Below, piece by piece: positions 2,955 to 61,895 of a stretch of DNA of 64,000 bases. This DNA comes from Eledone cirrhosa (lineage: Eukaryota), in NCBI GenBank assembly GCA_964016885.1, contig OZ024742.1, forward strand, positions 111,662,001 to 111,726,000, given 5' to 3'. The notes under the pieces are model-generated. The model was not told the origin of the DNA. It was given only the letters and a program-made list of their open reading frames with translations, and searched no databases. Positions within the stretch are counted from its first letter, which is position 1. The number at the start of each line of letters is the position of its first letter. The translations under genes were made by a program, and so were the position numbers.

Positions 2955-3275
2955 TTGAGTATATGTTGGTTGTTTACCGACACCTCAGTATGTAGATTGG
3001 AGCACTCGACGAAGTACGCAGTTTGGTTTGTTTATTCCAGAGTCATGTAAAATAAGTAAGTCAAACATGTAAAGTTTGGCTTCGTTTATTATAAATCCTC
3101 TTGCTATGTATTGACAGAGTGGAACTCACTTCAACAAATGTGTGCCTGTCTTTTCCACACACATTCGGACTGCCTGAAGAAGTCACAGCCAATAATAGTT
3201 GTCACCGAAATAAATATAGCACTGAATTTATAATAAAAGAAACCAGATTTTACATGGTTGACTCATTTATTATAT
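2955..3275 (+). mobile_element. Family B micro-element: inverted tail + HHR
   Basis: 2955-3095 is the reverse complement of the family B tail (36510-36655). It is followed by a direct HHR at 3169-3223. (TA)n on both sides. Confidence 0.75.
3169..3223 (+). ncRNA. Type I hammerhead ribozyme, family B (slightly decayed)
   Basis: ACTGC-CTGAAGA-stem II-GAAA-TAAATA-TA-GCACT. Confidence 0.7.
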
Positions 3276-4517
3276 ATATATATATATATATATATATATA
3301 TATATATATATATATATACAAAACTGAAAACTGACTCTAAATAGCTTGAAAATAAGAAATGAATTTATGATGAAATCAATTCGTTTTGGATACAAAATAG
3401 GAGAGAGCAGATCTCACTTTGCTTCAAAAAATTTCTTTTTCATTATCATTCTATATATACGTCACTCATATGTGTTTTTCGCTAAATTTATGGCCTTCTA
3501 TTTTTGAGAGAACAACGGAGAATTATATTTCCAAATAAACAGAACTGCCAAATAATTTACTTATAAAATCTTGTTTTGGCATTTTGGAAAGTTTTAGTGA
3601 AAGTAATTTTGATATCAACTATTCAAGCGCTTTTAAAAAGAAACAAAAGTATGTTCACTTTATCACACACCCTTATAGATAAGAGAGGAAAATTACGGTG
3701 CAAGAGTATCAGTGCGAAATTGCAATGTTAAATACAAATATACAGACATTCTATATTCCTGCACATTCCTGGTTACAAATCTGCTCTTGACAAAAGCGAT
3801 CCGTGGCACAAGAAAGGAATATCATCTGCAGGGCTACGTCTTCAATAAACCCGTCTTTGTTTTAACATTGTACACACTGGAAAATATTTTCAGAAGGACA
3901 TTATTTCTGAAAGAAGGTGGTATCCCAAACGACATTGATATTAATTCGATTGGGTTACGAATCACGTGCCAATGGCAACATGTGATAGTGATATTCTAAA
4001 TAACTCTTACAAATCATATTCCTGTTGGCCATTACGTGGAGGAAAGAAAACCGAAATCTGGTTTAATTATTAGGTACACTCAGCGAAACGATGATACTTT
4101 TAATAATTCAAGAATGGATTTCATAGGAATTGTTAGCAAAGGAGGAGACAACTATATCTAATGTATGCTTGATCACCGTGTAACAAACATTTTTTTTATC
4201 TCTGTTCCTGGCTTGTAATCACTTTTTTTGTATTGCTTAGGTCCCACATAAATAAAAAAAGTGCTATTAAACAGTTAAAAGTTTGGGTTTGTAAAAATTC
4301 TAAGCTATTCACTAGAATTATTTGTATGCTGAATTTTAGGTTGTATGTATGTTTATTTTGCTTATGTTAAATGATTTTTTTAATATGTTTCAGGTTAAAT
4401 TAAAATTATAAAATAAAGAGTGATATCTAAAGAAAATTATAGTGCAATAAAGTATAAAACTGTTAAAATGTGGATTAAAGAGATTTATTGATACTGGATT
4501 TTCGCACCCTGAATAAA

Positions 4518-4706
4518 GGGTAGATTGGCAGTATCGGTAGAGGGTCGGACGCCATGCTTTGACGCAAAGAGTTACGGCCTTTTCCATTATAAGTTCAAAT
4601 CCCACCGAGGTTAACTTTGCCTTTCATCCTTACGGGGTCGATAAAACAAAGTACCAGTAATACACTGGGTAATTGCTGGCCTTGTGCCAAAAGTAGAAAC
4701 AGTTAT
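4518..4706 (+). mobile_element. tRNA-derived SINE (family S1)
   Basis: A-box-like TGGCAGTATCGGT, B-box GTTCAAATCC, central CTTTGCCTTTCATCCTTACGGGGTCGATAAA, 3' GTAGAAACA(ATT)n. At least 8 copies in the window. Confidence 0.9.
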
Positions 4707-4974
4707 TTGTTTTTACTTGTTTGCTTTTGATAAGCTTGTGTAATACAATAAATATATACTCTGTTGATTTAAGTATATTTAGTGATAAATTTAAAAAAAA
4801 TGTGTTTTTTCTTGAAAAATATGAAAATTTCGAAATATCAAACTCCTGACACACAAACCAAAACATCTGAATAAATAATAGTGGTTTTTTTATAATAATC
4901 GGATATAACAAACCATAAGATGACACTTAGAACCGGGGAACAAAATATATGTTACACGGTGTTATCAGCTCTAG

Positions 4975-5165
4975 GACGGTGGATTGACAATATCGGAAGA
5001 GGGTCGGACGCCATGCTTTCCAGCATAGTTACGACCCTTTATGATCTGAGTTCAAATCCCGCCGAGGTTAGCTTTGCCTTTCATCCTTACGGAGTCGTTA
5101 AAATAAAATACCAATAATGCACTGGAATAATTGCTGGCCTTGTGCCAAAAGTAGAAACAATTATA
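4975..5165 (+). mobile_element. tRNA-derived SINE (family S1)
   Basis: Full-length match to 4518-4706. Confidence 0.9.
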
Positions 5166-59818: not shown

Positions 59819-60503
59819 AAAATTAGTCATTCATCAGTGATCTTACAACCGTCATTGGGATTTCTTCGCATTAAAGATCATATACTTCTGGTTGGTGCGA
59901 GCAATAACTACAAAAAGGTTATTGGGACACGTAAAATAGGGTGAAGTGAGAGAGACATGTAAACAAACAAAGATGCTAATGCAACGGAAAGATAGGTAGA
60001 GGGGAAAACAAGTCCGTGATATCTATGAACTTAAGTTCGGTGAAATCATAGACGAGGAGAGATACAGACCATCCGACCAGGGTGAGATGTGAGCGAGAAA
60101 AGGATTTCACACAGGTCAAACGGGATGAAGTGAGAGAGGGGGGAGTAGCAGAAAGTGAGTGAGTGAAAGTGTGAGGAAGAGGCCAGCTGTGAGAGAGTGA
60201 CTGGCAGAGGGGTTAAAAAAGGTGACAGATACAGAAAAAGGGAAAGCAGTAAGAAAGAAACAGACAGGTCACAGCGGAGGGAAACATATAAATATATGAA
60301 AAATGGCGTGCTGCGTTGTTGCATATAGGGTACATATGCATAAAATTAGTCCTTCATCAGTGATCTTCCAACCGTCATTGGTATTTCTTCGCATTAAAGA
60401 TCATATACCTCTGGTTAGTGCGAGCAGTAACTAAAAAAGTCATTGGGACACGTAAAATAGGGTGAAGCGAGCGATACATGTAAACAAACAGAGATGGTAA
60501 TGC
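59819..60503. repeat. Element with ~165-bp terminal direct repeats between (TA)n tracts
   Basis: 59819-59983 is repeated at 60342-60503, with a purine-rich spacer. Confidence 0.8.
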
Positions 60504-60786
60504 ATATATATATATATATATATATATATGTAGGAGGTGAGTTTTAGTACAATAAAGCAATGCAGATATCGGATAAGTAGTACTCTACAGTTTGTATGAC
60601 TTGAGTATAAATAATATATAAGATAAAAAGATGGTTAAAAGAGTTCCATGTATTTTATTATGCGCATTTCAGAAACAAATATGATCATGCAATAACATTT
60701 GCGTTTTCGTCAGATAAAATAGGGAGACATGATATGAAGGTTAAAAAACACTTGTGAATAGTGCAGTTTTAAATCAACATATCATG

Positions 60787-61401
60787 CAAACACACCGAGC
60801 ATTATAATAAATGTTCGGTGAATACATACGTACATATATATATATGTGTTCATGTATGTATATATATATACATACTACTGTACGTCTGTATACATATATG
60901 TATGTACGTGTACATACTTATATTTAAGTAACAGCCGTACTAAGAGTGGGAAATGAAATTTCGTTTCATTGTTTCCGTTTATCGTTTTCGGTGCACCCGG
61001 CCGATTAACCCACTCGATATGCAAATTGGGCTACTCAGCCGTTAATATGCATAAGGTAAGTATATACGTTCAACAATCTGGCAGGAAAGTATACGTTGCT
61101 GACGATAGCTAATAAGCTTGAAACTAGTACAGCGTTCCTTTGTCAGTGTTGAACAAACGAGTAACGATGGTTGCTAGACACTTCGGCTTAATACGGGATG
61201 TTTGTTTACAAACACACCGAGCATTATAATAAATGTTCGGTGAATCCATACGTACATATATATATGTGTGCATGTATCTATATATATATATACATACTAC
61301 TGTACGTCTGTATACATATATATATGTACGTGTACATACTTATATTTAAGTAACAGCCGTACTAAGTGTGGGAAATGAAATTTCGTTTCATTTTTCCGTT
61401 T
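60787..61401 (+). mobile_element. Family R (retrozyme-like) 1.45-mer
   Basis: Near-identical to the 26365-28389 units (period 422). Ends at the same ...TTTCATTTTTCCGTTT(AT)n junction. Confidence 0.9.
61093..61135 (+). ncRNA. HHR family R (intact)
   Basis: ACGTTG-CTGACGA-TAGCT-AATA-AGCTT-GAAA-CTAG-TA-CAGCGT. Confidence 0.9.
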
Positions 61402-61580
61402 ATATATATATATATATATATATATATATATATATATATATATATATATATATATATATATATATATATATATATATAAATATGTATAATATATAAATAT
61501 ATATATAATATATATACATATACATACATATGTGTATATATATTTACATTTACATACATATGTAAATATATATATATATA

Positions 61581-61895
61581 TATTAATAAAAGGAATTCCA
61601 ACTTTGTCTGATTTACTCGTTTTATTTACAATCCTTTAACATGTATAATTCTATTAGAATGAAATAGTATGGTAGAATATTAAATGTTAAGTGTTAATTG
61701 AACAACTACTTTCATGCTTTCGCAATCTTCAGGTTCATATTCAGTGGTGACAGTCAAGTTTGAAATTGAAAATTTAAATTAACACTTAACATTTAATATT
61801 CTACCATACTATTTCATTCTAATACCATTATACGTTTTAAAGGATTGTAAATACAACGAGTAAATCTGAAAAAGTTGGAATTCCTTTTATTAATA
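61581..61895. repeat. Foldback element (~118-bp arms) with HHR remnant in the spacer
   Basis: 61581-61699 is inverted at 61777-61895. Minus strand 61735->61704 reads AAC-CTGAAGA-T.TGC-GAAA-GCA.T-GAAA-G-TA-GTT. Confidence 0.82.

Follow-up and report, generated by a model that had tools for sequence, protein, structure and literature searches.

Foldback elements in the window

We analyzed a 64,000-nucleotide (nt) stretch of the Eledone cirrhosa genome (assembly GCA_964016885.1, contig OZ024742.1, positions 111,662,001 to 111,726,000 of the forward strand), here called the window, and in particular the small foldback elements lodged in its (TA)n runs, which are related to Penelope-like elements (PLEs). 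The window has a GC content of 35% and holds more than 100 TA runs of at least 10 nt; the host genome is 3.0 Gb. A previous sequence-only reading had named 10 stretches as hammerhead ribozyme segments joined to inverted copies of their own tails and bounded by (TA)n. Self-BLAST of the window gave local inverted pairs at or near most of these sites. In all 10 stretches, two pieces of a single repeat family face in opposite directions, and each outer end lies at or near (TA)n or TA-rich DNA; the layout is real. Nine of the 10 folded far better than 20 base shuffles of the same stretch (z from -5.7 to -32.8). The one at 8953-9075 (8955-9075 as first named) folded no better than its shuffles (z of -0.6); its two arms meet end to end on the family sequence, with no overlap, and so form no hairpin.

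Hammerheads were called with a pattern finder and by eye, using standard consensus positions; the reversed window gave 0 matches. A complete type I hammerhead is present in 2 of the 10 stretches (the A element and the B element at 36197-36656, which has one per arm) and a damaged one in 4 (2956-3271, both R copies, and F). The C element retains a hammerhead core without clear stems I and III, and neither the finder nor the eye located a hammerhead in the D copy or the two E copies of the window. The naming of all these segments as hammerhead bearing was thus correct for part of the set, and the proposal that they seed the genome with self-cleaving modules was, for the window, overstated. Rfam returned no hammerhead among the 150 of 195 window matches listed, nor in 16 element stretches; its matches were below threshold and mostly to microRNA models.

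Corrected coordinates are given in Table 1, in which an arm is called short or tailed according to whether it carries the short or the long 3' end of its family (see below). The F element reaches 61931, its tail having been missed earlier. The R copy beginning at 35565 runs on to ~36733; a B element is nested in its internal TA run, and the R monomer resumes at 36680, 3' of the nested element. The stretch 39038-39710 contains two elements. The plus arm of the A element begins shortly ahead of the hammerhead and finishes at the short end, the D copy does not include the hammerhead, and the tailed plus arm of the F element starts 1 to 4 nt 3' of the hammerhead cut site.

Table 1. Foldback elements, hammerheads, and the R array of the window (positions in the window).
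Position	Family or feature	Strand and layout
2956..3271	B (PLE, Hydra type by motifs), older subfamily	tailed arm - (~2956-3100); short arm + with damaged hammerhead
8953..9075	A	tail-only arm -; abutting arm +; not self-complementary
9014..9064	Complete type I hammerhead motif, GUA cut triplet	+
9153..9496	D, 540-nt tandem hammerhead monomer	tailed arm -; rearranged arm + ending at short end
26366..28387	R tandem array, monomers of ~424 nt, three with complete hammerhead	+
28545..28724	Diverged relative of E	tailed arm -; short arm +; no hammerhead
35565..36733	R	inverted long end, then + monomer broken by B element; hammerhead core mutated
36197..36656	B foldback inside the internal (TA)n of R	short arm - to -120 hot spot; tailed arm +
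36246-36300, 36456-36510	Hammerheads of the B foldback	-, +
38811..38985	Relative of E	tailed arm -; short arm + starting at predicted transcription start
39038..39080	R stub, tiny and separate (called from sequence)	inverted long end and direct short end
39112..39709	R foldback	short end -; long end +; hammerhead C3 mutated
44798..45238	C (4147-bp PLE)	tailed arm -; short arm +; hammerhead core only
61581..61931	F (two-ORF PLE)	short arm - with damaged hammerhead; tailed arm +

Families and their parent elements

Exact anchors of 21 to 30 nt gave genome-wide counts, which are matches and not loci, of 35,201 for E, 15,772 for R, 12,216 for C, 11,274 for A, 7,982 for B, 6,559 for F, and 23 for D; reversed anchors gave 0 matches. 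Very tight E foldbacks number ~5,200 (5,205 forward and 5,224 reverse). The loci studied, except those of D, lie in the first ~70 Mb of contig C1, and paired loci were chosen from the match lists as minus/plus neighbors.

For B, C, E, and F, full-length parent PLEs were identified, which have open reading frames (ORFs) for reverse transcriptase (RT) and GIY-YIG endonuclease. The B parent, ~4.1 kb, is arranged inverted pLTR-pLTR-ORF-pLTR (pLTR, pseudo-long terminal repeat; L042 and L050), the C parent is a 4147-bp tandem (L081), and the E parent has a frame of 786 amino acids (L210). A pLTR-ORF-pLTR partial tandem with an inverted, truncated 5' copy is present in L042 and L050 (B), L081 (C), and L210 (E). 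The F parent has two ORFs, which scored 27.6 bits against Pfam RVT_1, below the cutoff of 29.6, and 27.8 bits against Pfam GIY-YIG, above the cutoff of 22.6. In B, C, and E the RT and endonuclease were assigned from motifs by eye. There was no Pfam match for the E frame or for the PLE fragments of the window, and no match among solved structures for the E protein; proteins were compared by pairwise BLAST among our own families. E has RWR, DKT, and a CxCX5C linker, and B has RWK and DKT (in L050) plus CxCX5C; by these motifs B and E would be PLEs of the Hydra-clade type, which lacks CCHH. F and C have a CX4CxxC linker before the endonuclease, which fits the CX2-5CxxC of Neptune and equally that of Nematis.

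Type I hammerheads occur in A, B, and F, and the core only in C. The pattern finder found no canonical hammerhead in E, but it also missed the longer motif of D. Families R and D are tandem hammerhead monomers of 420 to 540 nt, R with an internal TA run. No parent PLE was shown for either; the D loci gave no PLE protein match, and the PLE protein matches in R loci sit in neighboring insertions. Judged by sequence, R and D are probably retrozyme-like, being tandem short monomers that each carry a type I hammerhead and have no ORF.

Some loci were unusual. At L342 (C1:21871700-21881000), two full-length F copies with long open frames form a head-to-head pair joined at the hammerhead cut region. 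Seven loci (L177-L180, L182, L188, and L192) carry an A fragment with identical flanks, inside a larger repeat. L222 has three tandem minimal E stubs with TA-rich spacers, possibly a nascent satellite.

Short and long ends of the paired arms

The 3' ends are fixed within a family; C has three of them and the others have two. Among 117 head-to-head loci, 114 carry the short end on one arm and a long end on the other (P = 1.6e-30 against an expectation of 0.5); by family the numbers are 33/33 for B, 22/24 for C, 37/38 for E, and 22/22 for F. The B and C counts were made by hand. For B, two loci were dropped for loss of the end of the inverted arm, one tail-to-tail locus was left out, and L048 and L049 were entered once; for F, four loci with an interrupted arm were dropped. 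The exceptional E locus has an indel at the start of the tail.

The element at 8953-9075 is informative in this respect. Its tail arm stops exactly at the end of the short arm, with no overlap, and self-copying cannot produce such abutting arms; the pattern is the one expected if two primers used one RNA. Separately, a common 11-nt motif follows directly after the long 3' end in both B (L042) and E (L210), and is a candidate start-site signal.

Junctions and arms

If the foldbacks were copied as units, the inner junctions would be shared, which was the check proposed in the sequence-only reading. Instead, the junctions are mostly unique to a locus. Thirty-eight E loci have 33 junction types, and the commonest of these, found at 4 loci, has four different arm haplotypes. 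The spacings of 33 B pairs number 30 and range from 50 to 3797 nt, the F and C spacings likewise reach more than 4 kb, and the R and D foldbacks also vary. There is neither the fixed length nor the common internal junction that would characterize miniature inverted-repeat transposable elements (MITEs). One E junction, at L273, has an untemplated run of ~16 T/A nt between the arms.

The arms of a locus are also more alike than arms drawn from different loci. The E arms differ within a locus by 1.26 mismatches, versus 3.23 after shuffling (the lowest of 5000 shuffles gave 2.47). The within-locus and shuffled differences are 0.020 and 0.076 for B, 0.052 and 0.088 for F, and 0.025 and 0.048 for C, each observed value lying below all 5000 shuffles. 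Since junctions vary while the arms of a locus match, the foldbacks likely arise at each insertion, as a by-product and not as a self-amplifying unit.

TA targets and read support

For B, C, E, and F, both termini of the first 30 genomic matches per family were scored for alternating TA beyond the element. At least 10 of the next 12 positions were alternating TA at 90 of the 120 termini, versus a background of 7% of positions in the flanks of the same loci, which bears out the enrichment that had been proposed. F scored lowest (11 of 30), partly because its ends were placed a few bases early and its long end continues into TC- or TATC-type repeats. Native element ends share 2 to 4 nt of AT microhomology with the target.

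In raw Illumina reads of restriction-site-associated DNA (RAD) from three other runs, TA follows both E ends (agreement of 0.79 to 0.86), and the same reads contain strand-switch joints, from 3145-3162 to 3203-3231 of L210. The hot zones of E and F coincide with read starts at AATT that seem to reflect the library cut site, and consequently read-start piles and depth steps were not used; a contig depth step in run X2, which may come from the source sample itself, agrees with the 5' limits described below but, being a poor measure, was not taken as evidence.

The 5' limits of the arms

In F, a single base is the starting point of 20 of the 64 arms; it lies 31 nt from the first T of a TATA box and ~40 nt upstream of the hammerhead (20 of the 50 regions in this set had been picked, most of them as pairs); 27 arms are shorter, 2 extend just beyond the limit, and 15 are long copies. 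In E, 74 of 91 arms start no more than 18 nt from the anchor, and an initiator-like stretch 25 to 29 nt from a TATA-like box marks their limit; another 2 are intermediate and 15 are long, 13 of these being alignments halted at an indel. The window E copy at 38811 begins on the predicted base. The A arms, read by eye, begin at stem I of the hammerhead, and in two of three native copies a TATA box lies ~30 nt away. Thus three families (F, E, and A) have arm limits ~30 nt downstream of a TATA-like sequence. One site accounts for the starts of 18 of 48 arms in B. The window also has a solo E stub (44347-44415) that is 100% like L210; relative to the predicted transcription start, it begins one base later.

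The F arms cluster a second time around the cut site of the hammerhead, where 7 of the 18 shorter ones start at 63 to 74 nt, a 12-nt span that includes the cut at 68-71 (P = 0.0006 to 0.0013). One full-length F arm and both arms of the B locus L449 also start at the cut. Hammerhead cleavage was rejected as the main cause of truncation, as most arms extend upstream of the cut. The idea that the E junction is a hammerhead stem II was dropped because no core motif is present there. We did not see a cap-derived extra G at the putative F run-off ends, where the base before the limit was C in 9, A in 9, and G in 2 of 20 arms.

Proposed two-strand priming and its alternatives

We propose that the foldbacks are head-to-head pairs of 5'-clipped PLE 3' ends in (TA)n, formed anew at each insertion by priming on both strands, with one start site used per strand; we put the probability of this at about 0.75. 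Because (TA)n is the same on both strands, both are likely to be nicked by the endonuclease. Each nicked 3' end would then prime at one of two internal start sites, aided by the 2 to 4 nt of AT microhomology. Both cDNAs would be copied toward the 5' end of the RNA, often running off, and would be joined head to head by end-joining with microhomology. The tiniest arms would be run-off copies of the RNA leader, from the start site back to the pLTR transcription start, and a minority would be run-offs at the hammerhead cut. As the start sites lie near the front of the pLTR-initiated transcript, the default product would be tiny; longer copies with a 5' pLTR upstream of the predicted start (L042 and L210) would need tandem or circular templates. 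R and D could be hammerhead RNAs, circular or in tandem, that make use of these PLE enzymes.

A more specific version is tentative, and we would give it somewhat less than even odds: a PLE dimer nicks both strands, each subunit is tied to a different start site, and the commonest product is a "strong-stop" leader copy ending at the cap or at the hammerhead cut. If so, the tiny foldbacks would be a fossil map, of the kind made by rapid amplification of 5' cDNA ends, of germ line PLE promoters and hammerhead cleavage, and it would take an LTR-like jump or a circular template to make a full-length copy.

Several observations weigh against two-strand priming or narrow its basis. Some junctions recur (five F pairs have a spacing of 106 nt, and two B loci have the same stem II junction), and gene conversion between arms can also yield arms that are alike. 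Two C loci carry two long ends. The B hot spot has no TATA box and is a TA-like palindrome that could draw microhomology joins, and the C 5' ends are broad, with only a loose cluster of 6 arms at -240 to -251. The TATA and initiator calls rest on general consensus and spacing, so the transcription starts are predicted ones. The F cut-site cluster is inflated by the 22 of 52 F arms that came from regions picked for lacking the hammerhead anchor, and PMC11167929 reports no RNA reads at the hammerhead cut and cleavage that is dispensable in vitro. No parent ORF was tied to family A. Finally, the loci, apart from those of D, come from one part of one contig, and exact anchors are biased to young copies.

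The inverted arm could instead be made by self-priming or snap-back after priming on one strand, as proposed for the rotifer Penelope on an antisense template in PMC3846280. This would account for the matching arms, for the palindromes at many junctions, and for the two B loci that fold back at the stem II hairpin of the hammerhead. It is nonetheless quite unlikely: it cannot give arms without common sequence, such as those of 8953-9075 and other tail-only arms; it leaves unexplained why the second arm has the other fixed end in 114 of 117 loci; and among the 38 E loci there is at least one, L248, whose arms belong to different subfamilies (3 differences). A lesser departure would keep two-strand priming but ascribe the 5' pileups to RT stalls at RNA structure or to microhomology traps. 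The palindrome beside a hairpin at the B hot spot, the A limit at hammerhead stem I, and the E limit before a hairpin are all consistent with stalling. We consider this improbable, though not strongly so, given that the F limit is a single base well upstream of the hammerhead and that the TATA spacing repeats in three unrelated families.

That the foldbacks are non-autonomous MITE-like units copied whole from master foldbacks, one of two origins that had been put forward for them, is very improbable. The abundance of very tight E foldbacks is in its favor, as are the recurring junctions and spacings, including one B junction that is identical at L048 and L049. Yet the many junction types, the presence of recurring ones on different subfamily haplotypes in both arms, and a size range continuous up to full length argue against it, and the common flanks of L048 and L049 suggest that this pair is a duplication. 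The layout of R and D is non-autonomous, as that proposal had it, but they occur as tandem monomers with varying foldbacks. The other proposed origin, as extreme truncation products of PLE integration, agrees with the ORF-bearing parents of B, C, E, and F and with junctions that differ from locus to locus. We give almost no credence to foldback chimeras made during assembly or library preparation. TA-rich, hairpin-rich DNA is prone to such artefacts, and the read check covered only the E family; however, arms differ by substitutions and by fixed, family-specific ends, and both the E ends and the strand-switch joints are present in raw reads from three other runs. These reads thus uphold the foldback class.

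Other features of the window

At 54511-55287, a further family forms a partial tandem (54511-54697 and 55006-55195) plus a terminal foldback between TA runs, a structure that likely arises by the same process as the foldbacks. A solo B copy at 9546-9776 ends at the -120 hot spot beside TA, and a B-related hammerhead family is present at 32102-32260. Hammerhead motifs of further families lie on the minus strand at 60651-60721, 21856-21902, and ~25990-26040. Decayed PLE coding remnants occupy 23400-25820, 33337-35444, 40181-42032, and 30432-31011; three are of Hydra type and one is F-like. The region 10038-16967 is a Helitron-like Rep/PIF1 helicase remnant (PIF1 match) with internal inverted duplications. 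A dispersed repeat of ~190 bp, like a short interspersed element in size, recurs at 4516-4720, 4972-5168, 30178-30376, 40346-40520, 42575-42786, and 58417-58628. The hairpins at 45438-45521 and 49231-49451 are weaker, have a different origin, and lack TA immediately at their borders.

Comparison with known systems

In LINE-1 twin priming, both target strands prime and the inverted segment is joined by microhomology. Twin-priming segments do not overlap and are primed on the poly(A) and at a chance site, whereas overlap is the usual case for the arms described here, and their two sites are fixed. Retroviral strong-stop cDNA is a short copy from an internal priming site to the 5' end of the RNA. 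The copies described here would differ from it in being primed by target DNA and integrated directly, with no strand transfer shown.

The foldbacks likely record how PLEs, a poorly understood class of transposons, integrate, and their value is as a mechanistic footprint. Minimal products of several young families, some of which have long open frames, occur by the thousands in this genome and yield predictions at base level for the transcription start, the start site used on each strand, and occasional copying of cleaved RNA. Annotators should be aware that such hairpins mimic MITEs and microRNA precursors. We did not find the rule of one site per strand or run-off at the transcription start in the open-access literature, although part of this may be in print. 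Relative to published PLE work, the pairing of a short with a long end, the TATA-spaced 5' limits, and the second pile at the hammerhead cut were not found in the literature searched.

Much of the background is established. PMC8557442 describes the inverted truncated PLE copy, the one-sided tail, TA targeting, and a pLTR start site, and its section 15 calls the origin of the tandem and inverted structures, the reason for a tail at one end, and the role of the hammerhead open; PMC3846280 reports head-to-head repeats with junction palindromes. The Penelope promoter was mapped in the pLTR (PMC2377424). Insertions of endonuclease-bearing PLEs (PMC8557442 and PMC3846280) resemble ours in 5' truncation, the head-to-head inverted copy, the tail at one end, junction palindromes or microhomology, the pLTR promoter, and the pLTR hammerhead. 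Ours differ in that many are 120 to 600 bp, lack an ORF, occur in the thousands, have tails of ~35 to 96 nt, and have sharp 5' limits. With the Hydra clade, as described in section 11 of PMC8557442, B and E share RW[K/R], DKT, the CxCX5C linker, CxxC and CxH around E and N, a C-terminal GIY-YIG-type domain, and (TA)n targets; that clade is generally <3 kb, whereas B is ~4.1 kb. A canonical hammerhead is universal in the clade; it is present in B, and the pattern finder did not locate one in E.

Animal retrozymes are defined in PMC7229834 and bioRxiv 10.64898/2026.07.22.740005. For non-LTR retrozymes, the likeness to R and D lies in tandem noncoding monomers, a type I hammerhead, and low GC; R and D differ in having monomers of 420 to 540 nt, partly above the 150-450 range, and also have PLE-style two ends, TA targets, and head-to-head inversions. 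A biochemical parallel that supports two-strand priming is the Poseidon PAc protein, which, according to PMC11167929, cuts and extends both strands in vitro, is predicted to be a dimer, acts on AT-rich targets, uses uncut RNA as the main template, and has two internal RT start sites that define the tail. The elements described here are alike in these start sites, strands, targets, and template, and differ in their 2 to 4 nt of AT microhomology, in the use of one start site per strand, and in the presence of some arms at the hammerhead cut. The foldbacks are thus the smallest form of a PLE insertion type that is already known and do not make up a new class of element.

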